Of a stretch of DNA of 64,000 nucleotides, positions 18,341-63,137 are shown one piece after another; positions within the stretch are counted from its first letter, which is position 1; every line of letters starts with the position of its first letter. The DNA is taken from positions 3,441 to 67,440 of the forward strand of contig CAZMID010000004.1 of NCBI GenBank assembly GCA_964566255.1, in the 5' to 3' direction. The stretch is from an uncultured Planctomycetia bacterium. GTDB lineage: Bacteria; Omnitrophota; Gorgyraeia; Gorgyraeales; Gorgyraeaceae. A program made the position numbers and the translations under genes. The notes below the pieces were generated by a model, which did not search any database, was not told the DNA's origin, and saw only the letters and a program-made list of their open reading frames with translations.

Positions 18341-20181
18341 ATATATCCTTTAAGCCAATAATAGACTATACCCAGATATTCATGCATAATAGCTCTTATC
18401 TGTTTCAATTTTACCCCTTCTCCCCTATAATAAAACTGGCTCTTCTCTACTGGAGTATAAAAAACCTTTATGCCTTCAGCACATTTATTAAATACTAGCG
18501 ATACCCGCCGCATATTATAAGGTGAGGAAATCAATAATATTGAATCCCATTTATGCCTATCTAATATATCTTTTGAAAACAGAACATTTTCATAGCTGCT
18601 ATTTGCTTTTTGTTCTAAAATAATATCCCTATTAGAAACTCCCATAGAAATAGCGAATAGCCGCATATTTTCTGCATCATTGTAATTGTAAGTATAGCCA
18701 GATGAAAATATTATCTTATCTGCATAGCCTTCGTTATATAGCTCTGTCGCGTATCTTGCTCTCTCCATAGTACTCTTACCAGGTGAACCTGTTTCACCCA
18801 CACCGCCTCCAAATACAACAATAGCATCACTTTTTTGCGGTGGTTCAGAAATCTTTAAAGGACTGGCCAAAAACCAAAGAAAGGGTGCTTTAAATAACAA
18901 AAAATACGACAAGAAACAAACTATGGCTAAACGTAGTGTTCTTTTTCTTATAACTCTATAAAAATTAACTAGATTTTCTTTCCACCTTGCTTCCATATCT
19001 GTTTTTTTTCTTTCCATCTCTTTTTGTATTAAATTATCCATCTTTTCAATGCGATTTTCCCAGTTATTTTGTCTAGCTACCTCGACTCTCTTTTGTCTTA
19101 AAATCTGATTATCCTCAACAACAGCCTTATCGATATATTTGCTGAATTCTTTTTTATCGCTTGCCACATATACTATATCTCCATATTCATTATTAAATGA
19201 AATTACCTCTGGTAAGGATGTCGATATAACAGCCTTTCCTAATGCAAGATACTCATTTAATTTAGTAGGATAGACATTCTTTGTGTAATCAGCAATAACA
19301 TATGGAATAAGGCATACATCAAAATTCTTTATAAAGAGAGGTAGATCTTTATGGTCTTTATTTCCCAAAAAATAAACATTTTTATAAGGCGATATCGAAG
19401 CTATATTCGTCTGTATAGGCCCTACGAATACAAAAGAATAATCCGAGTGCCTCTCTATCATTTCCTTTATTAAACCCTGGTCTATCCATTTATGCACACC
19501 TCCTACGTAACCGATTATAGGGGGTTTAATATTTTTAAAGTCTTTAGGAGTAATATTTTCTTCTAATCTTGCTTTTTCAAATTCACTAAAATTAACGGCA
19601 AACGGAAAATTATAAACCTTATCATTATATTTAGAACAATGATTAAATAATTCTTTTGAAGTCACGAAAACCAAATCTACATTCTTTAATAATTTTCTTT
19701 CCGATCTTTCTATCTTTTTAGCTGATATCGAACTAACAGAAAAGCTATCGATACAATAATAAATAAAGACCTTTTTTATAACATTATTGGCTATATCCAA
19801 ACTCAAAGGTGTTGGTAAAAATGTCCATATAATCGGGTCGTTAAAATCCATCACCTTCGTCCATTTCGTCAGAATAGATAAAATCAAATACCGATTAAAC
19901 CATCTTGCTATTCGTAAATAAGGAAACGGCAAAACCAAAGGAGAAAATACATATAGATTTTCGGTCTCTTTTCTTATGCCCTTTACGCCTCTAAACCAAT
20001 TCTTTATTCTTTTCCTGATGCGGGAGATGTCTTTTATTCCAGGTGAACGCACCCCAGTGTTTTCTATAAAAAGAACTCTATTGCCATTCTTGGCAAAAGT
20101 CGCCATTACCTCTTGGTGCCCCTGCCAGATAAAATCCCAGTCAATACTGGATATGCAAATTATATTTTCTCCCTTTATCAT
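18337..20181 (-). CDS. Fusion protein: N-terminal GT4-like glycosyltransferase + coiled-coil + TM + C-terminal DUF218 (YdcF/ElyC/SanA-like) domain
   Basis: 614 aa; GT-B C-domain signature NEYLALGKAVISTSLPE; after a TM segment SDAIVVFGGGVGETGS...YNEGYADKIIFSSG...ANSSYENV (DUF218 signature). Confidence 0.65.
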   Translation of the reverse strand: MIKGENIICISSIDWDFIWQGHQEVMATFAKNGNRVLFIENTGVRSPGIKDISRIRKRIKNWFRGVKGIRKETENLYVFSPLVLPFPYLRIARWFNRYLILSILTKWTKVMDFNDPIIWTFLPTPLSLDIANNVIKKVFIYYCIDSFSVSSISAKKIERSERKLLKNVDLVFVTSKELFNHCSKYNDKVYNFPFAVNFSEFEKARLEENITPKDFKNIKPPIIGYVGGVHKWIDQGLIKEMIERHSDYSFVFVGPIQTNIASISPYKNVYFLGNKDHKDLPLFIKNFDVCLIPYVIADYTKNVYPTKLNEYLALGKAVISTSLPEVISFNNEYGDIVYVASDKKEFSKYIDKAVVEDNQILRQKRVEVARQNNWENRIEKMDNLIQKEMERKKTDMEARWKENLVNFYRVIRKRTLRLAIVCFLSYFLLFKAPFLWFLASPLKISEPPQKSDAIVVFGGGVGETGSPGKSTMERARYATELYNEGYADKIIFSSGYTYNYNDAENMRLFAISMGVSNRDIILEQKANSSYENVLFSKDILDRHKWDSILLISSPYNMRRVSLVFNKCAEGIKVFYTPVEKSQFYYRGEGVKLKQIRAIMHEYLGIVYYWLKGYI

Positions 20182-21275
20182 ACAAAATTACCTCTGTCCC
20201 TTAACTTCATACCAAGAAGAACCCTGATAAGTTGAATTGGAGTTAGGGAGAAATTAGTACAACTTCTACATGCAGGAAATAGACTATTGAAGATCCTTTT
20301 TAAAAAATATTTCCTTCTGGAACTATTTAAAATAGATATGAGGTTTTCTTCCCTTATATTTCCATATTTAAAACCATCTAGGTTTGGACACGGCAATACG
20401 TCTCCATAAGGATCTATGGTGACTATGTTCCTTGCAGCGTAGCACCTCTTTATAGGAACTGTGCTCTCTTTTAAATTAGAATGCTTCCAGCGAATTAGTG
20501 ATTTTAATGAAAATGGTAATTTAAAATCTCTCTCTTTCATCTTTTTAGCGCAATCTTCTAGATCTCTAATATTCGAATCGCTAAAACTCAAGCTCTTTTC
20601 TTTAAATAATATCCTCGAGGAAGCAATACGCCTACCCTTATAAAGAGTGCTACGGAAATGTTCCTCCTTGGTCTGGCATGCATAAGAATATCCTATGCTA
20701 TCCGCGCCTATCCTTTTCTTTAAGTGCCACATATCTCCTACTTCAGCTACGTTCAAATTAGAAAGTGTAACATGGATAGATATAAATGGATTTGTCCTTA
20801 CTAAGTCCTCTCTTGCTTTCTTTAAATGGCTAATAGCAGTTACTGCCTTATCAAATGCTCCTTCGTGCGACCTCATAAGATCATGGCCTTTCCCAACTCT
20901 ATCTATCGATACAATCACATTGTCAAGTCCGCATTCGCAAAGCTCCTTAGCAACCTTGGCATCTATAATAGTAGCATTTGTTGTAACGCTACAGTTAAGC
21001 CCCTTCTTTTTGATATACCTTATAATTGACACTATATCATCTCTCATAAAAGGCTCTGCCCCCGCTAACAGAACCTCATCTATGCCCAACTCCTTCATCT
21101 GGTCTATTACCAAAAAAAGTTCTCGCAAGCTAAGTTCTTCTCGTTTTGGAAGTTTCCATACATCACAAGTAAGGCACCGACAATTGCACCTATAAGTCAA
21201 CTCCAAAACTCCCAAATAAGGCGTATTTCTTAAATATGAATATTCTCTTTTTAAAATAGACACGAGCTCTTTCAT
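20178..21275 (-). CDS. Radical SAM enzyme with C-terminal SPASM/twitch-like Cys-rich domain
   Basis: 365 aa; LELTYRCNCRCLTCDVW (CxxxCxxC), GAEPF glycine-rich SAM motif; C-terminal CYAARN...YGDVLPC...CRSC auxiliary cluster cysteines. Confidence 0.8.
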   Translation of the reverse strand: MKELVSILKREYSYLRNTPYLGVLELTYRCNCRCLTCDVWKLPKREELSLRELFLVIDQMKELGIDEVLLAGAEPFMRDDIVSIIRYIKKKGLNCSVTTNATIIDAKVAKELCECGLDNVIVSIDRVGKGHDLMRSHEGAFDKAVTAISHLKKAREDLVRTNPFISIHVTLSNLNVAEVGDMWHLKKRIGADSIGYSYACQTKEEHFRSTLYKGRRIASSRILFKEKSLSFSDSNIRDLEDCAKKMKERDFKLPFSLKSLIRWKHSNLKESTVPIKRCYAARNIVTIDPYGDVLPCPNLDGFKYGNIREENLISILNSSRRKYFLKRIFNSLFPACRSCTNFSLTPIQLIRVLLGMKLRDRGNFV

Positions 21276-22774
21276 CGCAAAATTGAACCTTGATATTTTA
21301 CCCTAAATAATTTTCTGGTAAATATAAGTATGGCTTTAACAAAATAAATTAATTTCTCTTCAGGATATGGTCCAATTATATTAAACTTAATCATTACTTT
21401 TGTCCTAAGCCTAAACCACCATCCTACCCACCGTAAGGCTTTAGCTTGAATACAAATCCGCCTGACTATATCAACACTTTTTATTAACCATTTTGAATGA
21501 CCAGGCGTTATGAATGGTAAGCATGTCTTTTCATCCCATTCAAACCTTGCCCAGCTTCCAAGATCTTCTGGAGATTTAAACCCCATTTCAATGCATCTAT
21601 GATATAAGGGCGTTTCAGGATATGGCGTATATATAGATGGACCATAAAATCTTGCACGTGGATATTTATCATGTAATTCCAACATAACCCTATATGTCTC
21701 AAGCAGGTCTTCTTTAGTCTCTCCCGGAAAACCAGCCATAAAGTGATAATAAACTCCCATCTGCCATTTTTTCAGTTTTTCATTTACTTTAAAAACCTTG
21801 TCTAAGTTTATGTCTTTGTGTATTAAATTTAATATTCTCTGAGATCCGCTTTCCACCCCAAAAGTCAATACCTTGCAACCACTTTCTTTTAATAAAGCAA
21901 TGAATGAATCGTCATATCCAGCAAAATAATCTATTCTGCAGTCAGCATGCCAAGCAATCTTAATTTTTCTTTTTATAATCTCATTACAAATGTCGGCAAC
22001 TCTCTGTTTGTCTACAAAAAAATTATCAGCTACAAAATTAATCCCATCTAGTGAAAATTTTTTGACAAGACACTCGATTTGTTCTATCACTTTAGATGCA
22101 GTAAAACATCTCCATTTATGTCCATTTATATTGATATTATAACAAAAGCCACATCTATGAGGACATCCTCTATCCGTATGTAGTTCAAATGTACGCCTAC
22201 AACCAGGAAAGTAGGCCCGTTCTATTTTGATATATTTTTCACAATCTAATAAATGATAAGGCAGCGAATTAAAATTATTTAGATCAATAAATTGAGCCAT
22301 TGGATTTGAGCAAATCTTACCATTTTCTTTCCACCAAACATTTGGTATATTCTTAAGGCTGTTGCCATATTTCATGGTGGTTACTATTTTTAAAAAAGCT
22401 TCCTCTCCCTCACCTTTGACCACAACATCAACTAGGTCATTTTTGATTGTTTGTTCTGGCAACATACTTGCATGCAAACCTCCCCAAATAACCGGTATAT
22501 TAAATCTATCCTTAACAATTTTAGAAAATTTTAATCCTCTTGAAATTTGTCTTCCGGTCATCGAAGAAACCCCTACGCAAACAGTCGACTCATCCAGCTC
22601 TTTATCTAAATCCTCAAGCCAATAAAGATTTGTTTCTGCGTCTACGATCTTTACCTTATAATTATTTTTAGTCAAAGGAGCAGCTATAGATAATAAACCC
22701 AAAGGAGGTCTATAATCCAACGTTATAGTCTCCCCTTTGGACATCTTAGGCCGAAATAAAATTACATCTGCCAT
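21272..22774 (-). CDS. Cobalamin(B12)-binding-domain radical SAM enzyme (class B), copy A
   Basis: 500 aa; N-terminal B12-binding-like domain (ILFRP...PPLGLLSIAAPL...KVKIVD), radical SAM core HTDRGCPHRCGFC. Confidence 0.8.
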   Translation of the reverse strand: MADVILFRPKMSKGETITLDYRPPLGLLSIAAPLTKNNYKVKIVDAETNLYWLEDLDKELDESTVCVGVSSMTGRQISRGLKFSKIVKDRFNIPVIWGGLHASMLPEQTIKNDLVDVVVKGEGEEAFLKIVTTMKYGNSLKNIPNVWWKENGKICSNPMAQFIDLNNFNSLPYHLLDCEKYIKIERAYFPGCRRTFELHTDRGCPHRCGFCYNININGHKWRCFTASKVIEQIECLVKKFSLDGINFVADNFFVDKQRVADICNEIIKRKIKIAWHADCRIDYFAGYDDSFIALLKESGCKVLTFGVESGSQRILNLIHKDINLDKVFKVNEKLKKWQMGVYYHFMAGFPGETKEDLLETYRVMLELHDKYPRARFYGPSIYTPYPETPLYHRCIEMGFKSPEDLGSWARFEWDEKTCLPFITPGHSKWLIKSVDIVRRICIQAKALRWVGWWFRLRTKVMIKFNIIGPYPEEKLIYFVKAILIFTRKLFRVKYQGSILR

Positions 22775-23631
22775 TACTTTTTATACCCCCACGCAACCCA
22801 ACCAGCTCTATCTTTTATTCTTGTAACATTAATATCCCGAAATCCACACTTAGCAAAAATATCATAAAGTTCTCGTTTGCTAAATCTATGTTCTATCGGC
22901 GCATTGAAGCGATCATAGAGATCTCCTCGCAATGAAAAAAGACTAGTTCCGAAATTAAAAGGTATTCTATCAGCAAGACATCGCGTAACCTTAAAACATC
23001 TCAATATCTTTGATGGTAATGAAAATAAGATAAAAACAAAAGGGGAAAAGATCCAGGACAATACATAAAATTTTGCCGGAGGTATCTTAACTGTAATATT
23101 CCTTATTTTGGTTATTATCTTCACAGCTATATATTTCATAATATTCTCGGAATGATCCTCGTAAAGATATAAAAAAACAGGGCTTGCTTTTCTCAGAACT
23201 CTAGCTATCTCTAAAAGTCCCTTTATGGGGCTAGCAACATGATGTAATACGCCAAAGGAGTACGCAAAATCAAAAATGTCACCTTTTGTGGGTATATCTA
23301 AAGCAGAACACCTTATCACATTGACATTACCCAACTTAGAAGTTAACTCTCTGGTTTTGTATACACCGTCACTTATATCTATGCTTACTATATTAACAGA
23401 AGGATTGTTCTTCGCCATGATATAAGTATCATATCCACATCCTGAGCCCACTTCTATACCCCTTCTGCCTCTAACCAATGATTCGGTAACTACTTCCTGC
23501 ACACTATTAAAATGCCATCTTTCAGGAGGCGATGTATCCTTATCTTTTTTCCACATAAATCCATACATCTTTTCTGTCTTTTTTGCACTATCCATAATCC
23601 CTCTATCAATCCTTTTTTCAATTGATATCAT
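22774..23631 (-). CDS. Class I SAM-dependent methyltransferase
   Basis: 285 aa; motif I IEVGSGCGYDT, motif post-I VSIDIS, Methyltransf_11/23-like. Confidence 0.75.
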   Translation of the reverse strand: MISIEKRIDRGIMDSAKKTEKMYGFMWKKDKDTSPPERWHFNSVQEVVTESLVRGRRGIEVGSGCGYDTYIMAKNNPSVNIVSIDISDGVYKTRELTSKLGNVNVIRCSALDIPTKGDIFDFAYSFGVLHHVASPIKGLLEIARVLRKASPVFLYLYEDHSENIMKYIAVKIITKIRNITVKIPPAKFYVLSWIFSPFVFILFSLPSKILRCFKVTRCLADRIPFNFGTSLFSLRGDLYDRFNAPIEHRFSKRELYDIFAKCGFRDINVTRIKDRAGWVAWGYKK

Positions 23632-27285: not shown

Positions 27286-28218
27286 TTACTTGCCTAGGGT
27301 AGTTGCTATTGAAGAAAAAACTTCCCTTGCTTCGACAGGATCCTCTGTAGTAGATGCAATTCTATTTAAGATGATTTGACCTGTACCACATAACACCAAA
27401 ATGCCATTATCCAGAACAGATACCACCCTACCCGGGGTGTTCCCTTCATATCTTAACTGGTTACGAGGCAAAGAAGCTCTCTCGATTATAAACTTTTCAC
27501 CATTGTACTTAGTCCATGCACACGGATATGGAGGTGAAAGCGCTCTTATCAAATTAAAAATATTTGCTGCAGATTTAGTCCAATTAATTTCGCCATCTTC
27601 TGGAACCCTTTTGCAGGTATAAGTCGCCTGCGTTTCATCCTGATCACGCCATTCTAATGTGCCTTTCTCTAAAGTGCAGAGAAAATCTTTATATAGTTCC
27701 ACAGTGGCCTTGTTAATACGCGGATAAACATCGGTAGCTACCTCCTCGTCTCCTATCTCAACAGTCTTCTGCTTGAATATTTTTCCTGAATCAACAGCGC
27801 CATCATCAATCTTAAAAAGAGTTACGCCTGTTTGTTTTTCGCCGTTGATGATTGCCCAATTTAATGGGGCAAAACCACGATATCTCGGTAGAAGCGAATC
27901 GTGGGCAGCTATACACCCTATAGGAATATTTTTATAAATAAATGACGGGATCAATGTCCTCCATCCACAAACAAAAGCAACATCAGGTTTAAATTCTAGT
28001 ATCTTAGAAAGGTTTCCAGAATCAAGCCGCTTACAAACTGTGACTGGAATATTATGTTGACTGCAAAGTTCTTTCAGATCTCCTGAAACCTTAATAATCT
28101 CATGTTTATCCTCTTCCAATATATACGCATAAACAATATTCTTACCTAAGGCTATCAACATTTCCATTAAGTTAAGTCCTCGCCTTGTCCCTCCTATAAA
28201 TAAAATCCTCTGGCTCAT
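27286..28218 (-). CDS. Sugar N-formyltransferase (formyl_trans_N family; ArnA-FT/Fmt-like)
   Basis: 310 aa; HDSLLPRYRGFAPLNWAIINGEKQTGVTLFKIDDGAVDSG (HxSLLPxxRG and D catalytic triad). Confidence 0.8.
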   Translation of the reverse strand: MSQRILFIGGTRRGLNLMEMLIALGKNIVYAYILEEDKHEIIKVSGDLKELCSQHNIPVTVCKRLDSGNLSKILEFKPDVAFVCGWRTLIPSFIYKNIPIGCIAAHDSLLPRYRGFAPLNWAIINGEKQTGVTLFKIDDGAVDSGKIFKQKTVEIGDEEVATDVYPRINKATVELYKDFLCTLEKGTLEWRDQDETQATYTCKRVPEDGEINWTKSAANIFNLIRALSPPYPCAWTKYNGEKFIIERASLPRNQLRYEGNTPGRVVSVLDNGILVLCGTGQIILNRIASTTEDPVEAREVFSSIATTLGK

Positions 28219-53392: not shown

Positions 53393-53406
53393 AATATAAA
53401 TAAATC

Positions 53407-54057
53407 TTATTTTTGTAGATCAGTCTTGTGTCTAATTTCTTGAGCTGGCACTCCTACTACTGTAGTTTCAGGCAGGACATCTTTCCTCACGAGTGCCGCA
53501 GCTCCAACTATAGCCATGCGCCTGATAACTACATTCTCTAAAATAGATGCCCCCATACCTAAAAAGGCTGATTCTTCGATCTTCACTTTACCTGCAATAT
53601 CAACTCCTGGATTAATATTTACAAAATCTCCAATTTCCACATCATGACCTATGGAAACATTGGAGTTTATTATTACTGAATTTCCGATATTGACATTCGT
53701 ATTAATCGTAACGTTCGGATAAATCACGACTCCTTGGCCCAAAGAAACATCCGAAGCAACAACCGCTGAAGGATGCACTATGTTTATTGGCTTGAAACCA
53801 ATATCGCATATTTTTCTAAACAAAACCTTTCGCGTAGCTATCTCGCTCACTGCAACAAAGGCATAAGTCACATTTTGTCTGATAATACGCTCCAGTAAAT
53901 TATCATCGCCTAGAACAGGTATATCATTTATCAATATCCCCTTTCTAATTGAGCTGGGATCAGTAAAACCAATAATTCTATATTCATTGCTAGGTTGTAA
54001 AAAAGAAAGGGCTTCTCGAGCAAAAGCGCCAGTTCCTAAAATAACAACATTTCTCAT
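53407..54057 (-). CDS. PglD/NeuD-family sugar N-acetyltransferase (N-terminal Rossmann-like + hexapeptide LbH)
   Basis: 216 aa; VVILGTGAFAREAL...IIGFTD then hexapeptide repeats. Confidence 0.75.
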   Translation of the reverse strand: MRNVVILGTGAFAREALSFLQPSNEYRIIGFTDPSSIRKGILINDIPVLGDDNLLERIIRQNVTYAFVAVSEIATRKVLFRKICDIGFKPINIVHPSAVVASDVSLGQGVVIYPNVTINTNVNIGNSVIINSNVSIGHDVEIGDFVNINPGVDIAGKVKIEESAFLGMGASILENVVIRRMAIVGAAALVRKDVLPETTVVGVPAQEIRHKTDLQK

Positions 54058-54116
54058 ATAAACTTCCTATTTTATCTGATTCGATATAAATGTTGTAGAC
54101 ACAAAAATAGACATAT

Positions 54117-55064
54117 CTAGGACAAAATCATTCCGACTTTTAAATCTTTATTTTTAAAAAAATTATATGCTAAAGAACTATCGCCTTTATCTTCCCAACC
54201 AGCTTTCATCAGGCTAACATAACCATCTGATGCGGCAACAACAATGCCTTTTCCTTGCGTTACTTCTACAATTTCACCATTTATTCTCTTTTTAGAAGGT
54301 TTTACATTAGTCTTGCACTCCTTTGCCTCCCATATTAAAAGCTTTCTGTTATTATACATAGTGAAAGCTGGTTTAAATGGAGGAAAACATAACGCTCGTA
54401 TTAAAGTAACAACTTCTCTTTTATCTTTTTTCCAATCAATTTCTCCTCTAAAAGGAACCTGTCTTCCGTAATATTGAGCCAAAGTATGATCTTGTTTGAT
54501 ACTTTGAACCTTACCGCGCTTTTCAAAAAGTAGCAGCTTTTCTTTAAATAAATCTATCGCTCGTTCGCCTACTTTCTGATACAATGAAAATGCAGTATCT
54601 CTATTAGAAATCGTCACTTTTTTTATATCGATAATATCTCCAGCGTCAATTTCAGGTTCAATATAATGCATTGTAACACCTGTCTCTTTTTCTCCATTTA
54701 TAATGCTCCAGGCTCCTGAATAACAACCTCTGTATTTAGGCAATAATCCACCGTGTAAATTAATAGCACCATAACAAGGTATATCCAATATAGCCTTTGG
54801 GATAATCTTTGGATAATAACAAGAAAAGATTATATCAGGTTTTAAAGCATCAATTTTAGCTATAAATTTCTCACTCTTTAAATCAATCGAGTTTAGCATA
54901 TTCAAATTGTTCTCTAGTGCGATTTTCTTAACAGAACGACACCATGTATCTATACCTCTATCATCTGGAGACACAGCAACCCCAACAATATTTTTATTGC
55001 TTTTAAGTAGATATTCTAAGCAATAAGCTCCTACATCTCTATAACCCAATAGTAATATCTTCAT
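54117..55064 (-). CDS. Sugar N-formyltransferase (second copy, formyl_trans_N family)
   Basis: 315 aa; AINLHGGLLPKYRGCYSGAWSIINGEKETGVTMHYIEPEIDAGDI. Confidence 0.75.
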   Translation of the reverse strand: MKILLLGYRDVGAYCLEYLLKSNKNIVGVAVSPDDRGIDTWCRSVKKIALENNLNMLNSIDLKSEKFIAKIDALKPDIIFSCYYPKIIPKAILDIPCYGAINLHGGLLPKYRGCYSGAWSIINGEKETGVTMHYIEPEIDAGDIIDIKKVTISNRDTAFSLYQKVGERAIDLFKEKLLLFEKRGKVQSIKQDHTLAQYYGRQVPFRGEIDWKKDKREVVTLIRALCFPPFKPAFTMYNNRKLLIWEAKECKTNVKPSKKRINGEIVEVTQGKGIVVAASDGYVSLMKAGWEDKGDSSLAYNFFKNKDLKVGMILS

Positions 55065-56125
55065 TTTTCCATTTCAGTTTTTAACATCTTCCAGTCTATA
55101 ACGCTATCTTTTTGTATAAACGCTTTGACCCTTTTACCTATAAGAGAATCAATGAATTTTGGCTGGATTCCTGTTCCTGGCCTTTTTGTAACAAGCATAT
55201 CTCGAGTTATTGTCTCATTTTTATTTATATCTACTTTACTAACTACACTCTTCCTTAATTTTATACGATTCTCTTTTTCTGATTCAGCAGGTTTTTTGAT
55301 AGAACTACCTAGTGTTAGCTCTGTAGTACGTATATCATGAACAAGCCTTTTTAATTCTTGAGGATTTAGTGAACTTTTATGATCAGGACCCGGTAGATTT
55401 TTATCAAGTGTAAAATGTTTTTCGTATAAAACAGCTCCTAATACAGTAGCAGCAATTGGATTAATATAATCTGGCGTATGGTCAGAGTACCCCACTAAAA
55501 GGTTAAATTCCTCCCTCAATAGAGAGATTACTCTCAAATTTGTATCTTCCAATTTGGCAGGATAATTTGCTGTGCAATGAAGTAGTATCAGGTCTTGGTA
55601 ACCTTCGTTTCTTATAGTATCAATGCCTTCTTTAACCTCTTCCAGCGTACACATGGCGGTGGACAAAATGATTGGACGCTTCTTGCGTGCTAAATATTTA
55701 AGAAAAGGGATGTTATTGGCATCTGTAGATGCTACTTTAAAGGCAGGAATATCCAAATCCTCCAGCATGTCAGCACTCTTCTCATCGTAAGGCGTAGAAA
55801 GAAACATAATTCTCATTTTATTACAGTGTTCTATCAATGCCTCATGAGCATATCTATCGAGTTCCTGACTCTTCAGCAAATCAAACCAAGACTGCTCCAT
55901 GCCTGTGGTTTCAATATGATAAGTAGATTTTGGAGCGGTTTTGGTATTCAGATTCTCTGCTTTAAAAGTCTGGAATTTCACAGCATCTGCACCAGATTCT
56001 TTAGCTAGTTCAATCATCTTTTTAGCCAGTTCAATATCACCATTGTGATTAACGCCGGCTTCTGCAATAATAAATACTGGCTCTCCTTCACCAATAATTC
56101 GATTAGCAATCTTTATCTTCTTCAT
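55061..56125 (-). CDS. Nonulosonic acid synthase (NeuB/PseI/LegI family) with C-terminal SAF domain
   Basis: 354 aa; FIIAEAGVNHNGDIELAKKMIELAKESGADAVKFQTF (NeuB N-terminal signature), SDHT metal site, C-terminal SAF-like region. Confidence 0.85.
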   Translation of the reverse strand: MKKIKIANRIIGEGEPVFIIAEAGVNHNGDIELAKKMIELAKESGADAVKFQTFKAENLNTKTAPKSTYHIETTGMEQSWFDLLKSQELDRYAHEALIEHCNKMRIMFLSTPYDEKSADMLEDLDIPAFKVASTDANNIPFLKYLARKKRPIILSTAMCTLEEVKEGIDTIRNEGYQDLILLHCTANYPAKLEDTNLRVISLLREEFNLLVGYSDHTPDYINPIAATVLGAVLYEKHFTLDKNLPGPDHKSSLNPQELKRLVHDIRTTELTLGSSIKKPAESEKENRIKLRKSVVSKVDINKNETITRDMLVTKRPGTGIQPKFIDSLIGKRVKAFIQKDSVIDWKMLKTEMEK

Positions 56126-56823
56126 TTACTCATTTTCTCCCACCATGGATATAAAAGTTCAGCAATCTTGAAATCAAGTTCAGTATCTATGTCAACAGCG
56201 GCTATATCACCCATCTTTATAAAACCGACTTTATCTCCATATATACTTTTCTTGTCTAAGATAGTCTCCCTTTTTATCACCTCAATAGTCCCATTGCCCT
56301 GATATACCTTAGGAAGATCTTGTCGTCTCGTCAGTTCATACCCTGTCTCAATAAAATTTACCAGCCTATCTTCAGCGATCCTTTTCATCCAATATGGCGG
56401 ATAAACTGCTTTTGATATTGCCCTAATAGAATCAAAATCAGATTCAAAAATCCTCTTTATCGCTTTATCAATTTCATCAGCAGTACGAAATATACTAGTA
56501 GGTCGTAAAAAAACAATATAATCCGGCTTCCAATTATGCGCATCAAACCAGAGTAGGGCATGTTCAATCACAGAAAAATCAGAAGCAGTATCTTCTGCGA
56601 GTTCACCGGGTCTCAAAAATGGAACTTCAGCACCATATTTCTTGGCCACATCAGCTATCTCCTGATCTTCAGTAGAAACTACAGTCCTACTTATAAATTT
56701 ACTCTTTAATGCTTCTTCAATCGCGTAAGCAACCAAAGGTCTATCCTTTAAAAGCCTAATGTTTTTGCGTTTTATCTCTTTTGATTTTCCACGTGCAGGT
56801 ATTAAACCAAGGACATTCTTCAT
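56122..56823 (-). CDS. CMP-nonulosonic acid synthetase (acylneuraminate cytidylyltransferase family); start re-called at internal ATG
   Basis: LGLIPARGKSKEIKRKNIRLL and FLRPTS motifs of the NeuA/PseF/LegF family. Starting at MKNVLGLIPARG removes the overlap with the upstream methyltransferase. Confidence 0.8.
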   Translation of the reverse strand: MKNVLGLIPARGKSKEIKRKNIRLLKDRPLVAYAIEEALKSKFISRTVVSTEDQEIADVAKKYGAEVPFLRPGELAEDTASDFSVIEHALLWFDAHNWKPDYIVFLRPTSIFRTADEIDKAIKRIFESDFDSIRAISKAVYPPYWMKRIAEDRLVNFIETGYELTRRQDLPKVYQGNGTIEVIKRETILDKKSIYGDKVGFIKMGDIAAVDIDTELDFKIAELLYPWWEKMSK

Positions 56824-56824
56824 T

Positions 56825-57646
56825 CTATGCCTCCATCTTTCTGGCATACGTTGTCATTATATTGCCATAAAAAGGCGGTGATATTTTACCCTTATCAAAT
56901 AATCGAATAAGATTTTTAATAGTAAAATAATCTGTTGTAAAAAAGGGGGTTTCTTTCTTTATAACCCTGTATCCAATCTTATTTAACAATAATTGTACGG
57001 TCTTCTCTGAAAACATCGTTAAATGCTCTTTTCCTAATAATCTAAAGTTACCCTTGAATCTTTTTGCACAGAAACTACTCACATTCGGTAATCCAATAAT
57101 TACAATGCCATTCTTCTTCATGATCGTTTTGATCATCTGCATGAATTCAAGTGGATCCACTAAATGTTCAATTACATGATAAAGCACTACTATATCAAAA
57201 TATTCTCTTGGAAAGGTGTTCTTATCTAGTAAGTCCTTGCATATATTAATTTCCTGGTAGTTGTCTTTTATATACTCTACGCATACATCTGAAATCTCAA
57301 GGCCGTATTTTTCATGTTTATTAGAAATAGCGGAAAGCAAAAAACCTGGGCCACACCCCACATCAAGAAGTCTCCCCGAAGACTGTCTGTTGATAAACGA
57401 AGGTATCCTACCATACCAATTTTTTAATTTGGGACTTCTTTCTAAAAGCATGTTTCTCTTTTTCCCATCAGGATCAAGTGATTGCTGCCAATAGTCTTCC
57501 TTGTATTCCATCTCCAGATAGGGGTTCTGGATAATAAGACTACAATTAACGCATTCGACAAACTGGTTATTTTGCCAATCATAAAAAGTAAACTTAAAGT
57601 CACTCCCCTTACATAAGGGACAATTTTTTCTATATAACTTTTTCAT
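56825..57646 (-). CDS. Class I SAM-dependent methyltransferase with N-terminal Cys4 zinc ribbon
   Basis: CPLCKGSDF...CVNCSL, motif I LLDVGCGPGFL; start probably at MKKLYRKNCPLC. Confidence 0.7.
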   Translation of the reverse strand: MKKLYRKNCPLCKGSDFKFTFYDWQNNQFVECVNCSLIIQNPYLEMEYKEDYWQQSLDPDGKKRNMLLERSPKLKNWYGRIPSFINRQSSGRLLDVGCGPGFLLSAISNKHEKYGLEISDVCVEYIKDNYQEINICKDLLDKNTFPREYFDIVVLYHVIEHLVDPLEFMQMIKTIMKKNGIVIIGLPNVSSFCAKRFKGNFRLLGKEHLTMFSEKTVQLLLNKIGYRVIKKETPFFTTDYFTIKNLIRLFDKGKISPPFYGNIMTTYARKMEA

Positions 57647-58376
57647 GACTAATGATATGTTTATTTTTAAATGCAACTAAGTATAAAAAAGACAAGATGA
57701 AAAGCCATAAAGAAATAGACTTATAAAATGTCTTCTCTGGAATCAATGGCAGATCTTCCTTCTCAGAAAAGACAACTCGCCTATCTTCATCCATAATATC
57801 AAAGGATATATAATTCCTGCCTGGCTTTTCAAAACTGAAATTGGCAAGTACCCTTACCTCATTCAGCCCTAATTGTAAAAATTTGGTAATTTCTATCACT
57901 GGGAAGTCTTTTTTATATTCGCGATTAGTGCCAAATGTTTTGTTATAATCAGGTACCCAGTTAAACTCTACAAAATTGTCATTGATGTAAAGCCTGTAAA
58001 GCTCTTGCGTCTTGATACGCATAAAATACTTATCCCTTTTATCTATCTCTATCTGTCCGGACAATTCATAATTCCTTCCGTGCATAAAATACTGGTCAAC
58101 CTTATTCCCATCAAACACTATATTCTCTGGATAATGCCGCCTCCTAATAGACCTTGCGTATGCATGGTAAGAATCGTATAAATCAGCTATCCTATTATTG
58201 TCTCCTTCCTTATTTAGCAAAATATTTTTGAATTCGCTCCAAAAAGGATAGCGATCGACCTTTAAAAAAATTATCCCAGTAAAAACTGACCATGTTACGG
58301 TCAATAGTATCAAAGTAATAATAACTATGATGTTCTTGAGCGGTAGGCCTTTGATAATACGCGTATCTTCTAACAT
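57630..58376 (-). CDS. Hypothetical bitopic membrane protein
   Basis: 248 aa; N-terminal TM helix, ~180-aa extracytoplasmic domain, C-terminal TM helix. No motif recognised. Confidence 0.4.
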   Translation of the reverse strand: MLEDTRIIKGLPLKNIIVIITLILLTVTWSVFTGIIFLKVDRYPFWSEFKNILLNKEGDNNRIADLYDSYHAYARSIRRRHYPENIVFDGNKVDQYFMHGRNYELSGQIEIDKRDKYFMRIKTQELYRLYINDNFVEFNWVPDYNKTFGTNREYKKDFPVIEITKFLQLGLNEVRVLANFSFEKPGRNYISFDIMDEDRRVVFSEKEDLPLIPEKTFYKSISLWLFILSFLYLVAFKNKHIISHEKVI

Positions 58377-58389: not shown

Positions 58390-59616
58390 TTATCTAGTAA
58401 CTACTAAAAAATTGCTCTTCTTCACTAAAGACACTAGCCAGATCAATATAAGTGCCGGAAGAAGTGCTACGCCTCCTATAAAATGAAAAGACTTAACAAA
58501 ACATTCTGGATAAAGCCAATAATTATAAAAACTCTTCATGGATGTCAATGGAACAAACTGATGATAATTTGCATATTGATTTGTTTCGAAAATCAAGTAT
58601 TGAGAGAAATTCAACTGCCATATAAACCCTAAAACAGAATATAGACAAAAAAGTTTATCTATAAAGATAACACCTATCGGAATAACCCAATATAAATACT
58701 GCGATGCCAAAACTGGAGATAAAATATAAACAACGAGTATAGTTATCAAAAGTAATGCCAAGATATTTGTTTTTCTGCCAACATACCCAATAATAACTGC
58801 AGAGATAATTATAATAAATTTTGAAAATTTAGCATAAACTCTTATTAAATCTCCGATGGTAGCTAACTCAAAGAAAGGAATCCCCCATCCAAGATGTCCA
58901 CCACCGCTATAACCAAGCATTGACCTAATGCTTCTAATAATCAAAAGTTGGTCTAACAACAGCAAAAAAGGCAAGATACACCCCAATATATAGATCAAAA
59001 GAAAACCTCTTTTATCTTTTGCATGAGGCCTCTTGAAAAAGAAAGCCGGGAGACAGAAAATAACATACGGCTTAAAATATGTAGCTAACAACAATGTCAA
59101 TGGAATAGCTACATTTTTATGTCTTTCTGCCCAGGAATGCGATAATTCAATATAGACTGCTAGCAGGATAAAAAAGAATACCTGCTGATCAAATTGCCCA
59201 TGCAGTGCAGTAAGCTGAAAACTCATGGGATTAAAAATATAAGCAGCGCATACAAATAATGAAAATCTGTCAGATTTTCCCATTTGTCTTGTGATTTTAA
59301 ACAATAAGAACATAATTCCTATGTCTGCGAAAATATCAGCTAATCTCATCCAAAACGAGTAAAAGAGTCCAAAATGATCTACAAAGACTCCAAAGATATA
59401 CCCAAATACATAAATTGAAGGAAAATATGGTATCCCTATAGGTATTTGACCATCAATCAAATATTCATTATAAGATTCGAGGTTCGAAGGATCGCCATGC
59501 CCTTTAAAAAGATAAGCAAATGCCAATCTTATTAACACGCCTAAAAATAATAAAATGGCGTATTTGATATAATCTCTACGGCAAGCCTTATCTTGTAATG
59601 TCGCTTTAAAAAACAT
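58390..59616 (-). CDS. Polytopic membrane protein, possible GT-C-fold polyprenyl-phosphate-sugar-dependent glycosyltransferase (DUF2029/PMT_2-like)
   Basis: 408 aa, about 10-11 TM helices, first loop rich in aromatic/acidic residues. Immediately downstream of a DPM1-like GT2. Confidence 0.4.
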   Translation of the reverse strand: MFFKATLQDKACRRDYIKYAILLFLGVLIRLAFAYLFKGHGDPSNLESYNEYLIDGQIPIGIPYFPSIYVFGYIFGVFVDHFGLFYSFWMRLADIFADIGIMFLLFKITRQMGKSDRFSLFVCAAYIFNPMSFQLTALHGQFDQQVFFFILLAVYIELSHSWAERHKNVAIPLTLLLATYFKPYVIFCLPAFFFKRPHAKDKRGFLLIYILGCILPFLLLLDQLLIIRSIRSMLGYSGGGHLGWGIPFFELATIGDLIRVYAKFSKFIIIISAVIIGYVGRKTNILALLLITILVVYILSPVLASQYLYWVIPIGVIFIDKLFCLYSVLGFIWQLNFSQYLIFETNQYANYHQFVPLTSMKSFYNYWLYPECFVKSFHFIGGVALLPALILIWLVSLVKKSNFLVVTR

Positions 59617-59619
59617 AAA

Positions 59620-60318
59620 TCATCTTCCTTTCAACCTGAAGTAAAACATCTCTTTTAATCCAGAAAAAGCAGCGGGGATATGCCTAATTGACCTTCTGCC
59701 TTTTACGCGCTTCAAATAAGCTATAGGGATTTCTTTTATAGATAATTGCATACTTTTACTTTTTATAGCAACTTTTGTTGTTGTCATAATAGGGTGGATA
59801 TCAAGTATGCCTAAAACAGGTAAGAGCTTTTCCCTCCTGTATAATTTAAAGGCGCAATTAGGATCTCTTAAGAATATGCGAAAAAGAATCAAGGTTAATA
59901 AAATATTCCCTATCGTGAAAAAAATACGCTCCCTGCTATCCCTATGGGTTATATTTCGAACTCCCCATATAGCATCGTAATCATCGCGATACTTCCATAA
60001 CTTCCAGATATCCTTAGGATAATGTGAATAATCGGCATCTGCCCACATAACATAATCCTTAGAGGCATACTTAAGTCCTTTAAAAACTGTTTCGCCATAT
60101 CTTTTATTTTTCTCATTATTTAATACAACAACTTGGGAGAACTGTCCTTTTAACTTTCTTAGTATCTGTGATGTAGAATCTGTTGAAGCGTCATTAACTA
60201 TAATTATCTCAAAATCGTCTAAATGCCTACTAAGCTCAGCATGCCAATCACACGTAAAACGCTGAATATTATCTTCTTCGTTATAACACGGGACCACAAG
60301 ACTTAATGACGGTTTCAT
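59620..60318 (-). CDS. GT2 polyprenyl-phosphate sugar synthase (DPM1/ArnC-like), soluble form
   Basis: 232 aa; LSLVVPCYNEEDNI, IIVNDASTDST, DADYSHYP (DAD motif). Confidence 0.8.
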   Translation of the reverse strand: MKPSLSLVVPCYNEEDNIQRFTCDWHAELSRHLDDFEIIIVNDASTDSTSQILRKLKGQFSQVVVLNNEKNKRYGETVFKGLKYASKDYVMWADADYSHYPKDIWKLWKYRDDYDAIWGVRNITHRDSRERIFFTIGNILLTLILFRIFLRDPNCAFKLYRREKLLPVLGILDIHPIMTTTKVAIKSKSMQLSIKEIPIAYLKRVKGRRSIRHIPAAFSGLKEMFYFRLKGR

Positions 60319-60339
60319 AAAGAGCCTCTTTTATAAAAA

Positions 60340-61716
60340 TTAAATACCGGCAACTTCTGCTTCTCCTGCCAAATCAACTAAATAATCATACCAGCCAAAA
60401 ACTTCCTTTGCATTACGATGGGCGATCCGAGGACGCTTGGAACCACCACATTCCTCTTTTCGCTGAAAATTACCTATTGTCTGAAATTCTGAAAAGTCTT
60501 TCAGGCGCTCAGGTACCCAATGTATAGGGTCTGCCAAGGCCTCTTGGTACGAAACTGTCCCCGGCAAAGGCTGAAAGATATGAAAACTAAATTTCACTTT
60601 CCCATTTGTTTCACTAATGATCCTCTTTACATATTCGCCTGTCAGCTTAACATCACTTGACGTCTCATAAGGTAGGCAACCTGTTATCATCTGGGCCCTG
60701 ACCTTCAAATTATACTTTGCAGTTAAAAGTAAGGCCTTGTAATTTTGCTCAGATGTATTCTGCTTATTCAAACCCGCTAATACCTGATCAGAAAAATGTT
60801 CCACACCAAAAACTATCCCCACGCATCCAGAATCTACCATCATCTGCAACTTCTTCTCATCTATATGATCTGTTCTTCCCAGGCAAAGCCAATCCAACCC
60901 AGACCGAGACATCTGTTTACATAATTCATCAAGCATATCTTTCTTGGTCAACATGTCATCATCATCAAAATATACCCTATTTATTCCCCATCGCTTTTTA
61001 TGCTGTATAAGTTCATCTACGGCATTTTTTATATTGCGATGGCGAATCCATTTATGACCGGCTTGACCACTCATGCAAAACTTACATCTGCTATAACATC
61101 CACGACTGACCATTACATTAAATTGTAAATCATCTTTATGTTTGTTCAGATAGCTGTATACACCGGGCTTTAGATAACGGTAGATGCCATAATCTTCAAA
61201 CCGTAATGGATAATATTTTTCAATATCTCTTTCCAGTGGCCGTTTACCTGTATCAATAATACTTCCATCTTTACTTAAAAAGACAAGACCGGGAATATTC
61301 GAGATATCTTTCTGACTGGTCATTAATTCCAATATGCATTCTTCGCCCTCACCATTAACTGCAATATCAGCATTACGACTACGTAAACAATCCTCGGGAA
61401 GCGCTATAGCATGAGCGCCTCCGATAACTATCCGCGCCGATGGATTTCTAGATTTTAAAAATGTCGCTAATTCCTGGGCATAAAATATTTGACAGGTTAC
61501 GGCGGAGATGCCATAGAGATCGGCATCTGGAATTACATCCCATGATTCCTGCTTGGTTCCAGCTAAATCTACCAACGTGGAATCAACACCGTTCTTTCGC
61601 AAATAAGAATGGATAGACAAAGGGCCCCTTGCCATAATCTCAGTGTCGGATTTTAAATGGGATGTCGGAAGATTTATTATTACTATCCTACTCCGATCCA
61701 CACCTTTTAAGATCAT
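60340..61716 (-). CDS. Cobalamin(B12)-binding-domain radical SAM enzyme (class B), copy E
   Basis: 458 aa; IVIINLP...GPLSIHSYLRKNGVDSTLVD, SRGCYSRCKFCMSGQ. Confidence 0.75.
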   Translation of the reverse strand: MILKGVDRSRIVIINLPTSHLKSDTEIMARGPLSIHSYLRKNGVDSTLVDLAGTKQESWDVIPDADLYGISAVTCQIFYAQELATFLKSRNPSARIVIGGAHAIALPEDCLRSRNADIAVNGEGEECILELMTSQKDISNIPGLVFLSKDGSIIDTGKRPLERDIEKYYPLRFEDYGIYRYLKPGVYSYLNKHKDDLQFNVMVSRGCYSRCKFCMSGQAGHKWIRHRNIKNAVDELIQHKKRWGINRVYFDDDDMLTKKDMLDELCKQMSRSGLDWLCLGRTDHIDEKKLQMMVDSGCVGIVFGVEHFSDQVLAGLNKQNTSEQNYKALLLTAKYNLKVRAQMITGCLPYETSSDVKLTGEYVKRIISETNGKVKFSFHIFQPLPGTVSYQEALADPIHWVPERLKDFSEFQTIGNFQRKEECGGSKRPRIAHRNAKEVFGWYDYLVDLAGEAEVAGI

Positions 61717-61745
61717 TTGCCTACTTCCTCCTTAAATCCTTAACA

Positions 61746-63137
61746 TCAGGTATAATTCCCTATAAACCTTCTTACTATGTTCCAAAAATTCGAAAAGGAA
61801 CCTAAATTTAAAAGTATCTTTGATAATATTAAAGGACGTAAATGAAATAACAGTATGGCTTTTTTTAACAGAATATCTACCTCTTTTTTGGAAAGATGTG
61901 GGGAGAAGCTTTTCACTACTTTATAATAAGACATATCACCGAAGTCTAAATCATCAAGCTGCCTGTCTTTCTTTAAATCAAAAAAGATCTGGCTTCCAGG
62001 GAATGGCGAAAAACTGGCAAATCCTCCACGTTCTATAGGTAGTCTTTTGGAAAATTCTATCGTATCTAAAATATCCTTACGCGTTTCAGTAGGATAGCCA
62101 ATAATAAACTGGCCTGTTATCCTCATTTTATATTTAGCCAAAAGATTAACTTTTTCCTCTATTTGACTAATATTCAAGTCCTTGTTCATATCATTTAAAA
62201 TTCTCTGAGAACCAGATTCAATCCCAACAGCAACCGCATAACACCCAGCCTCCTTCATAGCCTTAACAACTTCATCATCAATCGAATTTAATTGTATCCC
62301 GTTATTACAATTCCAGAGTATATTTAAACTACTCACTTTATCACAAAATTCTAAAACAGCGCTCTTTTTAAAAGTAAAGTTGTCATCTTGAATTATAATC
62401 TCCTTTACACCAAACCGCTTAACTAAATACTTTATCTCAGCAATAACATTATCTATGTTTCGATACCGAAATCCATTACCATAAACTGACTTTACAGTAC
62501 AAAAATTACATCTCATGGGGCATCCCCGGCTTATAGCTATAGGGACATTTGGAAATCTCTTAGCAAAAACACCTTGTGGCGCATGAGGATATAATGTTGG
62601 CTTAAGTAATTCCCAATCTGGCCAGGGCAATTTGTCAATGTCTCTTATGGATTCTTTTGCATTCTTGACAATTTCTCCATTTCTATTCCGCCAAACCAAA
62701 CCTGGGATACCATGCCAAGAGGCTCCACCTTCAGCTATCATATTTACCAGGGACAAAAAGGCCTGTTCACCTTCGCCTACAATAATAAAATCCAAATCAG
62801 GACCTAAATAATCCATCGTCTCATCCGGTAATGCAGAAGGATGAGGTCCACCTATGACTGTAATTATCTGCGGATTGTATGCTTTAATACAGCGGAGGTA
62901 TCCTTTTACTGTAGCTAGATCAACAGAATAGACTTGTATACCTACAACGCCTGGTTTTACATGACTCAAAAAATTATAAAAAGAATCTATTGTTGAAATT
63001 TTATCTCGGATTGCCTCACATAGAAAAACATCATGCCCACCTTTAAGTTTAAGCATCGAAGCTAAATAGCCCAAGCCCAAAGGAGGCGTAAATGAGTAAG
63101 AAAATTTATTAAATGGACGCGTCAGAAGTACTCTCAC
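61746..63137 (-). CDS. Cobalamin(B12)-binding-domain radical SAM enzyme (class B), copy F
   Basis: 463 aa; VLLTRPFNKF...PPLGLGYLASMLKLKGGHDVFLCE, SRGCPMRCNFCTVKSV. Confidence 0.75.
   Translation of the reverse strand: MRVLLTRPFNKFSYSFTPPLGLGYLASMLKLKGGHDVFLCEAIRDKISTIDSFYNFLSHVKPGVVGIQVYSVDLATVKGYLRCIKAYNPQIITVIGGPHPSALPDETMDYLGPDLDFIIVGEGEQAFLSLVNMIAEGGASWHGIPGLVWRNRNGEIVKNAKESIRDIDKLPWPDWELLKPTLYPHAPQGVFAKRFPNVPIAISRGCPMRCNFCTVKSVYGNGFRYRNIDNVIAEIKYLVKRFGVKEIIIQDDNFTFKKSAVLEFCDKVSSLNILWNCNNGIQLNSIDDEVVKAMKEAGCYAVAVGIESGSQRILNDMNKDLNISQIEEKVNLLAKYKMRITGQFIIGYPTETRKDILDTIEFSKRLPIERGGFASFSPFPGSQIFFDLKKDRQLDDLDFGDMSYYKVVKSFSPHLSKKEVDILLKKAILLFHLRPLILSKILLNLGSFSNFWNIVRRFIGNYT

Follow-up and report, generated by a model that had tools for sequence, protein, structure and literature searches.

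We analyzed a 64,000-nucleotide stretch of Omnitrophota DNA (hereafter, the window; contig CAZMID010000004.1 of assembly GCA_964566255.1, positions 3,441 to 67,440) and focused on the seven radical S-adenosylmethionine (SAM) enzymes encoded in its surface-glycan gene cluster. Six of them have class B architecture, and the seventh is of SPASM/Twitch type. The enzymes fall into at least three independent conserved modules and not into one pathway, and a role in glycan/phosphonate tailoring is well supported. With moderate confidence, we interpret them as tailoring steps in separate precursor modules, most likely radical C-methylations of activated precursors like those performed by Fom3 and GenK. 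A first-pass annotation, made from the sequence alone, had assigned the six class B enzymes to a single glycan pathway. They do share one locus, which also makes phosphonate, and they stand in different tailoring contexts as it had said, but the comparative context divides them among separate conserved modules.

All seven open reading frames (ORFs) reported by that annotation were present on the minus strand, and they are labeled R0 to R6 here.

R0: 20178-21275 (-), radical SAM enzyme with a partial SPASM domain (PF04055 72.7 bits, PF13186 44.8 bits)
R1: 21272-22774 (-), radical SAM enzyme of class B architecture (PF02310 52.6 bits, PF04055 68.9 bits)
R2: 37151-38713 (-), radical SAM enzyme of class B architecture (PF02310 80.2 bits, PF04055 83.6 bits)
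R3: 43431-44939 (-), radical SAM enzyme of class B architecture (PF02310 64.3 bits, PF04055 62.0 bits)
R4: 47618-49132 (-), radical SAM enzyme of class B architecture (PF02310 48.6 bits, PF04055 67.3 bits)
R5: 60340-61716 (-), radical SAM enzyme of class B architecture (PF02310 47.3 bits, PF04055 51.9 bits)
R6: 61746-63137 (-), radical SAM enzyme of class B architecture (PF02310 66.8 bits, PF04055 84.3 bits)

The Pfam gathering scores are 32.1 bits for PF02310 (B12-binding), 29.5 bits for PF04055 (Radical_SAM), and 21.5 bits for PF13186 (SPASM). R1 to R6 passed with both an N-terminal PF02310 (47.3-80.2 bits) and PF04055 (51.9-84.3 bits), and 6 of 6 have the PLGL-type Rossmann start and the RGCxxxCxFC (CX3CX2C) motif. 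Their class B architecture is thus solid, and the B12-binding domain, which had been proposed from motifs together with a hidden Markov model search as the way to check it, was found in every one. The six also proved as mutually divergent as claimed: their pairwise identity is only 22-32%, so they are ancient paralogues and not recent duplicates. Cobalamin use and methyl transfer by R1 to R6 are plausible from their sequences, and we infer both, along with the exact substrates named below.

R2 and R3 belong to a conserved 2-aminoethylphosphonate (AEP) module, the other genes of which are listed here.

36222-37154 (-), GT2 glycosyltransferase directly downstream of R2 (PF00535 135.8 bits)
38729-40825 (-), 698-residue protein with an N-terminal class I methyltransferase domain (Methyltransf_11/31/25) and an unassigned C-terminal part of 450 residues
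40822-41676 (-), CDP-alcohol phosphatidyltransferase-family membrane protein (PF01066 44.7 bits; weak NCBIfam matches only)
41645-42352 (-), free-standing nucleotidyltransferase, IPCT-half-like (IPCT/DIPPS; NTP_transf_3 57 bits)
42349-43434 (-), AEP aminotransferase-like enzyme (AEPT; Aminotran_5; TIGR03301 PhnW-AepZ 300.8 bits, cut-off 360.8)
44936-45978 (-), phosphonopyruvate decarboxylase (Ppd), split into two ORFs, one with the N-terminal (45490-45978) and one with the C-terminal (44936-45493) thiamine pyrophosphate domain (PF02776, PF02775)
45991-47649 (-), phosphoenolpyruvate (PEP) mutase (Ppm) fused to a C-terminal NTP_transf_3 (PntC-type) nucleotidyltransferase (PF13714, PF12804)

The PEP mutase passed its curated cut-off (TIGR02320, 337.2 bits against 319.55), has the EDKxxxxxNS motif (EDKQFPKVNS at residue 109), and is the sole isocitrate-lyase-superfamily gene in the window. 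Its fusion to a nucleotidyltransferase is of a type described before (PMC6697681). Overlaps of 4 bp join the genes for Ppm-NTP_transf_3, Ppd, and R3 into a contiguous run, and R3 lies between Ppd and AEPT. This is the genomic coupling known for Fom3, i.e., to a Ppm-cytidylyltransferase fusion and Ppd, and it is kept in L003, L008 (L numbers designate loci fetched for comparison), and many metagenomic loci. Ppd is encoded by two overlapping ORFs in the window and by a fused single ORF in L003 and L008.

A metagenome scan with R3 gave 341 relatives, and 80 loci were fetched and their six-frame ORFs searched with the window proteins. Around 30 loci showed a phosphonate context, with Ppm, Ppd, AEPT, the nucleotidyltransferase, the CDP-alcohol transferase, and often an R2-like enzyme by the R3 orthologue; they include a Nanoarchaeota genome (L008) and GCA_040961015.1 (L003). 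The R3 family comprises >120 clusters at ≥47% identity, with a mean column identity of 65% in the alignment. About 40 other loci (L007, L030-L072, and others) are without phosphonate genes and hold a sister clade of R3 (47-50% identical), with an AP_endonuc_2-type TIM-barrel ORF directly upstream on the same strand in 35 of the 40. In L007, an LPG_synthase_TM gene follows. The neighbor-joining tree parted the two context classes almost cleanly; the window R3 fell in the phosphonate-context part, in clades where nearly all members with enough flanking sequence have Ppm, Ppd, or AEPT neighbors. A genome scan with the Ppm-PntC fusion returned one locus, from an Omnitrophota metagenome-assembled genome (MAG) with 54% identity, which has no radical SAM gene in its 8 kb.

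R3 is predicted to have a class-B fold. Its AlphaFold2 model has a pLDDT of 91.2, and the top Foldseek matches were TsrM, AprD4, MgmA, OxsB, TokK, and CysS, with TMq of 0.62-0.66; those to TsrM, MgmA, OxsB, TokK, and CysS cover the full length. The match to the cobalamin-free AprD4 (TMq 0.66) was level with those to the cobalamin-dependent enzymes.

The remaining genes of the module are conserved to different extents. Homologues of the CDP-alcohol phosphatidyltransferase-family protein, a putative phosphonyl/phosphoalcohol transferase, adjoin R3 orthologues in L008, L013, L016, L022, L031, and L080. Those of the free-standing nucleotidyltransferase, which scored 75 bits against the IPCT/DIPPS model and 45 bits against the Sden_1164 family (both below cut-off), were found in about 10 phosphonate-context loci. 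A homologue of the GT2 downstream of R2 comes after the phosphonate module in L031. The 698-residue methyltransferase had no specific NCBIfam family, and its homologues (645-743 residues) occur with Ppm in L031 and without it in L005 (14879-17110) and L093 (15049-16986), so this protein is not tied to phosphonate pathways. A faint kinase-like (APH) signal was seen in the L005 copy.

R2 is the sole one of the seven enzymes with a specific family affinity. It scored 302.6 bits against NF038361 (the Sden_1168 family), to which its residues 4-413 align, and the next family was HpnJ with 179 bits; with a cut-off of 575 bits, R2 stays outside NF038361. The R2-like partners of R3 orthologues in L008, L014, L016, and L031 likewise matched NF038361 best (244-373 bits, next family ~150-190 bits), and these scores place the R2 clade, in our view, as a sister of the Sden_1168 family and not within it. 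P-methylation by R2 of the PhpK/SD1168 type was set aside as the primary reading, because phosphinate-forming genes are missing and all scores are below cut-off: no phosphinate-forming enzyme (e.g., of the CPEP-mutase type) appeared in the Pfam annotation of the window, and R1 to R6 reached 61-118 bits against the PhpK/BcpD P-methyltransferases (TIGR04479, cut-off 600).

In the pathway that we propose, the module enzymes would convert PEP to phosphonopyruvate, phosphonoacetaldehyde, AEP, and finally cytidine monophosphate (CMP)-AEP. R3 and/or R2 would alkylate an unactivated carbon of CMP-AEP or of a close precursor with methylcobalamin, as Fom3 does on CMP-hydroxyethylphosphonate, and the CDP-alcohol-phosphotransferase-type enzyme would put the phosphonate product on a glycan or lipid acceptor. 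An alternative that we consider improbable is that the targets are lipids: the CDP-alcohol phosphotransferase would make a phosphonolipid head group, and membrane lipids or lipid carriers, in place of sugars, would be what several of the radical SAM enzymes modify. Lipid head groups are the usual product of the CDP-OH_P_transf family, LPG_synthase_TM and AP_endonuc_2 genes are the neighbors of the R3 sister clade with no glycan genes among them, and many class B enzymes act on lipids (HpnP/R, the ladderane-associated family). However, the window genes show translational coupling within a glycan cluster that also encodes Wzx, GT2/GT4, and nucleoside diphosphate (NDP)-sugar enzymes, a GT2 gene comes directly after R2 in both the window and L031, and R4 and R6 have conserved sugar-pathway neighbors.

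The second module includes R4 and the genes upstream of it.

50634-52496 (-), 620-residue relative of the LIC12162 family, partner of R4 (homologues adjoin R4 orthologues)
52508-57676 (-), nonulosonic-acid block (Pfam): AP_endonuc_2 TIM barrel, PglD-like acetyltransferase, ArnA-N-like formyltransferase, NeuB, CMP-sugar synthetase, and class I methyltransferase

NeuB passed its cut-off (TIGR03569, 421.1 bits against 399.65), and the block further gave a PseF-like match of 171 bits and a formyltransferase match of 212 bits. The window copy of the 620-residue protein had no Pfam, NCBIfam, or PDB match. Its homologues stand by R4 orthologues in L003, L004, L005 (11456-13330), L093 (11447-13297), and JGI 3300072015, and the L093 copy carries PF27859 'LIC12162'; we regard the family as a candidate nonulosonate transferase. 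R4 itself, which one public gene call starts 15 codons later (489 residues), is from a rare family, with ~16 clusters at ≥49% identity before a drop to 33%.

We compared the R4 context in the window with those in the five loci named above, one of which (L004) spans 4 kb only. The LIC12162-family protein is beside R4 in 6 of 6 contexts. NeuB and a CTP_transf_3 cytidylyltransferase are present in all five that are long enough (window, L003, L005, L093, and JGI 3300072015), and Wzx in four of these five. An AP_endonuc_2 protein, formyl-/acetyl-transferases, and SPASM radical SAM enzymes are frequent further neighbors. R4 adjoins the PEP mutase gene in the window, yet Ppm is found in only two R4 contexts (window and L003). 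R4 thus tracks the nonulosonic-acid block and not the PEP mutase, which makes it most likely that R4 acts on a nonulosonic acid, its N-acyl group, or its transfer. In the proposed mechanism, R4 would modify the nonulosonic acid or the N-acyl group. SPASM radical SAM genes recur inside NeuB/CMP-synthetase blocks of uncultured genomes (L091 17091-21346, L093, and L005), a hint that the making of nonulosonic-acid precursors includes a radical step apart from the class B enzymes.

The conserved companion of R6 is a small GT2, and in the window a mutase gene is found with the two.

59620-60318 (-), small GT2 of 232 residues, conserved neighbor of R6 orthologues (PF00535 94.2 bits)
63134-63997 (-), UDP-galactopyranose mutase (UGM), C-terminal part, the gene runs off the window (PF03275 263.7 bits)

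The UGM matched model positions 94-375 of TIGR00031 with 227.5 bits. The family of R6 is large and uncharacterized, with relatives in Omnitrophota, Patescibacteria, Nitrospirota, and Elusimicrobia MAGs. A homologue of the small GT2 adjoins the R6 relatives in three contexts besides the window (L089, L090, and L091), two of which have an amino-oxidase-type flavoprotein upstream, where the window has UGM, and GT-C-type membrane proteins are encoded near R6 relatives in the compared contexts. The small GT2 has weak PgfS, ArnC, and AglJ-type matches below cut-off, a hint of a polyprenyl-phosphate-sugar side-branch system. R6, and perhaps R5, grouped with UGM and the small GT2, would modify a hexose or hexofuranose donor. 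R5 is closest to R6 among the paralogues (31.6% identity), and no orthologue of it was seen, as it was never the best match of any ORF in the 93 fetched loci. Two ORFs that lie toward the NeuB block, downstream of R5 and the small GT2 after it (57630-58376, 248 residues, and 58390-59616, 408 residues, both -), had no Pfam match even at E = 10 and no NCBIfam match.

R1 and R0 are grouped with a class I methyltransferase and amino-sugar genes: R0 overlaps R1 by 4 bp, and R1 also adjoins the methyltransferase gene.

22774-23631 (-), class I SAM methyltransferase adjoining R1 (Methyltransf_11/31/25)

R1 has 5,646 representatives at E ≤ 1e-30, and no tight orthologue group was found among 1.84 billion representatives, the best of which is 45% identical and sits on a 3.8-kb contig. 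R0 had been described as a canonical CxxxCxxC radical SAM enzyme with C-terminal auxiliary-cluster cysteines. The core motif was there (C30/C34/C37, CNCRCLTC), and the auxiliary part was only partial: the SPASM region has four cysteines (C278, C296, C336, and C339) against the seven-cysteine motif for two auxiliary clusters, and is therefore Twitch-like and fits one auxiliary cluster. The best PDB match of R0 is the sugar-nucleoside decarboxylase BlsE (7vob), with only 46 bits.

Several lines of evidence count against C-methylation as the reaction of these enzymes, or against the substrates proposed for them. None of the seven reached the curated cut-off of any NCBIfam family, methylating or not. 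The top matches of R1 and R3 to R6 are BchE or HpnJ, with 110-185 bits against cut-offs of 481 and 578, and both are non-methylating, BchE being an oxidative cyclase and HpnJ a putative ring-contraction enzyme (PMC13459092). For BchE (TIGR02026), R1 scored 148.6, R3 120, and R4 140 bits, within a range of 112-171 bits for the six; for HpnJ (TIGR03471, cut-off 577.6), R6 scored 183.3 and R5 124 bits. Neither family can claim any of the enzymes as a member by these scores, pigment and hopanoid genes are absent from the window, and we take the matches to reflect generic class B similarity. A cluster for a pigment or for a peptide made on ribosomes and modified after translation (RiPP) was ruled out, as precursor-peptide, pigment, and hopanoid genes are all absent from the window. 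AprD4 is the best PDB sequence match of R2 to R4 (followed by MgmA (9ccb), TokK, TsrM, OxsB, and CysS) and among the top structural matches of R3, and AprD4 and ArsL are described in a review as having class B architecture without cobalamin binding (PMC12931638). The fold alone cannot establish cobalamin use, because AprD4 matches too, and reviews of the class, among them PMC12931638, state that cobalamin binding and methyl transfer are not predictable by any sequence rule. The R3 family is not phosphonate-specific, since its sister clade of about 40 loci lacks phosphonate neighbors. SD1168, the named relative of R2, is a class B enzyme that methylates a phosphinate surrogate in vitro and has an unknown natural substrate (PMC9204698). 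The CDP-alcohol phosphotransferase would also fit a lipid acceptor. Furthermore, C-methylated forms of AEP or of a nonulosonic acid are not known to have been described on a cell surface. The earlier proposal of multiple C-methylated sugars or phosphonate is thus a reasonable inference, which has to be set against the lack of any named-family assignment and the non-methylating best generic matches.

A second explanation is that some or all of the six enzymes act on the same glycan/phosphonate substrates by non-methylating chemistry, i.e., ring contraction, dehydration/deoxygenation, anaerobic oxidation/hydroxylation, or epimerization. We rate it as unlikely overall and nonetheless as a serious rival for R6, whose best named match, HpnJ, is thought to contract a glucosamine ring. 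The options are contraction of the HpnJ/OxsB type (attractive for R6 beside UGM and GT2), AprD4-type chemistry, and BchE-type chemistry (giving, e.g., hydroxy-AEP). The BchE and HpnJ matches, all sub-cut-off, and the AprD4 matches fit this explanation, and HpnJ acting after the GT2 HpnI parallels the pairing of R6 with a GT2 (PMC13459092). Moreover, ring contractions, oxidations, and cyclizations are listed among class B reactions in reviews (PMC12931638, PMC13459092), and the locus already has three class I methyltransferases. AprD4, however, aligns by the core only: the match to its family model (NF033070; 54-114 bits for the six against a cut-off of 500) spans model positions ~165-400, whereas the alignments with cobalamin-binding relatives take in the N-terminal domain (R2 85-382 to TokK 66-363; R4 6-376 to TsrM 7-404). 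An AprD4-like dehydratase was for this reason set aside as the main interpretation and kept as a rival. In addition, the closest named family of R2 is that of a methyltransferase demonstrated in vitro (PMC9204698), and most characterized class B enzymes methylate.

It is very improbable that some copies are dead, cobalamin-free relics, or structural paralogues, so that the count of six overstates the encoded chemistry. R5 has the weakest domain scores and no orthologue in the fetched loci, and AprD4 and ArsL indicate that Rossmann-like N-domains can lose cobalamin binding (PMC12931638). Against this, 6 of 6 keep the CX3CX2C motif, full-length ORFs, and above-threshold domains. The orthologues of R2, R3, R4, and R6 are also kept with their neighbors across distant lineages, which implies purifying selection on these four. 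Tailoring of separate precursors, most likely by radical C-methylation, stays our preferred interpretation.

All the modules lie within one gene cluster, in a long minus-strand gene run of the ~35% GC window.

12197-63997 (-), surface-glycan cluster of the Wzx/Wzy type, ~45 genes (Pfam and NCBIfam)
49145-50650 (-), Wzx-type flippase (Polysacc_synt and MatE)

The cluster covers at least 52 kb on one strand and runs past the window end at 63997, with intergenic gaps ≤85 bp and many start/stop overlaps of 4 bp. By Pfam and NCBIfam, it encodes a WecA-like initiating transferase, GT4 and GT2 enzymes, DegT aminotransferases, dehydratases/epimerases, an asparagine-synthase-like amidotransferase, Wzx, a protein with a weak EpsG/Wzy-like match, two ArnA-N-like formyltransferases, NeuB, a CMP-sugar synthetase, UGM, and three class I SAM methyltransferases. 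The polysaccharide locus recognized in the first-pass annotation is therefore borne out by its initiating transferase, Wzx, GT2/GT4, DegT, formyltransferases, NeuB, and UGM, and the cluster extends on either side of the range given there (20178-63137), from 12197 to beyond the window end. Its count of three conventional SAM methyltransferases is right (22774-23631, 38729-40825, and 56825-57676, the last of which (-) is part of the nonulosonic-acid block), and no cobalamin-synthesis genes were found within the window, again as it had said. The closest named relatives of several window proteins are from Candidatus Omnitrophota MAGs.

The initiating transferase (13269-15059, -) is an unusual fusion of a WecA/MraY-type Glycos_transf_4 domain followed by a CoA_binding_3 region, the latter being typical of the N-terminal part of WbaP/WcaJ-type enzymes. 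The two formyltransferases are encoded separately (27286-28218 and 54117-55064, both -), suggesting two different N-formylated amino sugars in one glycan. At the low-coordinate side, the cluster boundary is marked by an FMN riboswitch (12024-12143, -, 107 bits) directly upstream of the ribBA/rib operon. The mechanical start of the ribBA ORF (12039) overlaps the riboswitch, and the true start is probably further in. The rib operon, tRNA-Pro, and housekeeping genes lie below 12197, with the tRNA-Pro (CGG) at 6157-6234 (-) between ligA and rmuC.

What the window shows is a case of a pattern that recurs among uncultured lineages, since other loci are similarly rich in radical SAM enzymes. L016 (JGI Ga0210057_1000312, 1-21461) holds six class-B-type ORFs along with at least two of SPASM type within 21 kb, class-B-type enzymes number four in L031 and about four in L089, and consecutive genes of L091 encode a SPASM enzyme, a class B enzyme, NeuB, and a CMP-synthetase. 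In L016, two repeated triads (an R6-like enzyme, a second class B enzyme, and a SPASM enzyme) flank the R2-like/R3 pair. It is possible, though we would hold it only tentatively, that a widespread pathway in uncultured lineages uses the R3 and R2 families, as a conserved cobalamin-dependent pair, to alkylate CMP-AEP into C-alkylated aminophosphonate head groups, which a CDP-alcohol-phosphotransferase-type enzyme would place on the cell surface, with separate class B families tailoring nonulosonic acids (R4) and hexose/hexofuranose donors (R6), altogether giving a 'radical-methylated' glycocalyx typical of anaerobic, uncultured microbes.

The tailoring roles known for class B radical SAM enzymes concern antibiotics, cofactors, lipids, and RiPPs. 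Their type of chemistry is known, and the literature searched gave no account of its use in conserved modules for surface glycans and aminophosphonates. Full-text searches that paired radical SAM with surface polysaccharides, nonulosonic acids, or aminoethylphosphonate returned no such description, in agreement with the earlier statement that no glycan pathway of this kind had been described. A term search of the 2026 review of the class (PMC12931638) gave no hit for polysaccharide, glycan, sugar, or phosphonate, and by term searches the 2022 and 2026 class B reviews name no cell-surface polysaccharide or phosphonoglycan substrate. In a 2022 phosphonate inventory, the sole mention is of a Campylobacter group in which ppm-ppd adjoin a radical SAM gene of unspecified type, and in an Omnitrophota genome preprint radical SAM comes up solely within giant multi-domain proteins.

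If our interpretation is true, phosphonate chemistry would gain a new and environmentally widespread branch point at which CMP-AEP is alkylated by radical chemistry, a physiological context could plausibly be given to the orphan SD1168, and nonulosonic-acid and furanose chemistry would gain radical modifications. The findings suggest that the surface glycans of uncultured lineages (Omnitrophota, Nanoarchaeota) may depend on cobalamin. The modules also give testable enzyme-substrate pairs, namely Ppm-PntC/Ppd/AEPT/R3/R2-like, R4/LIC12162/NeuB, and R6/small GT2.

Among known systems, the nearest precedent in mechanism for the phosphonate module is the fosfomycin pathway of Streptomyces, where Fom1 (a cytidylyltransferase-Ppm fusion) feeds Fom3, the C-methylase of CMP-hydroxyethylphosphonate (PMC6697681, PMC9204698). 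In either case, one cluster combines a class B radical SAM enzyme with Ppd and a Ppm-nucleotidyltransferase fusion. In contrast to the Fom pathway, which makes hydroxyethylphosphonate via a reductase, the window would make AEP via an aminotransferase; it has two radical SAM enzymes in place of one, and no FomD-type hydrolase or epoxidase. The presence of a CDP-alcohol phosphotransferase and of glycosyltransferases suggests a product conjugated at the cell surface and not a free antibiotic. The window nucleotidyltransferase is C-terminal and of the NTP_transf_3 type, unlike that of Fom1. The PntC-type phosphonoglycan pathways of Treponema denticola and Olsenella uli (PMC6697681) share the Ppm-nucleotidyltransferase fusion, Ppd, AEPT, and CMP-AEP activation for surface decoration, whereas those clusters were not reported with radical SAM enzymes (Rice et al. 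2019).

SD1168 of Shewanella denitrificans (NF038361) represents the closest named family of R2 and of the R2-like partners tested, and the free-standing nucleotidyltransferase weakly matches the family of the neighboring Sden_1164. The differences are that R2 is well below the cut-off of that family and that no route to a P-H phosphinate is evident in the window. SD1168 is in the same sequence similarity network cluster as Fom3, MoeK5, and HpnJ (PMC9204698). The C-methylation of unactivated sugar carbons proposed for R4 and R6 is the class B chemistry of GenK, GenD1, Fms7, and MoeK5, sugar-acting enzymes that are among the methylating majority of characterized class B enzymes (PMC12931638, PMC9204698). 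They are from actinomycete secondary-metabolite clusters, unlike the Wzx/Wzy surface-glycan locus of an uncultured anaerobe-type lineage studied here. AprD4, the radical SAM diol dehydratase of apramycin, also acts on a sugar and matches R2 to R4, but its sequence alignment is limited to the radical SAM core and it binds no cobalamin (PMC12931638). HpnJ, thought to contract the glucosamine ring installed by the GT2 HpnI in the hopanoid cyclitol ether (PMC13459092), acts on a lipid-linked amino sugar and is the best NCBIfam match of R6 and R5, and R6 is likewise kept by a small GT2. In contrast, R6 is far from the HpnJ cut-off (183 against 578 bits), hopanoid genes are absent, and the HpnJ chemistry is itself unproven.

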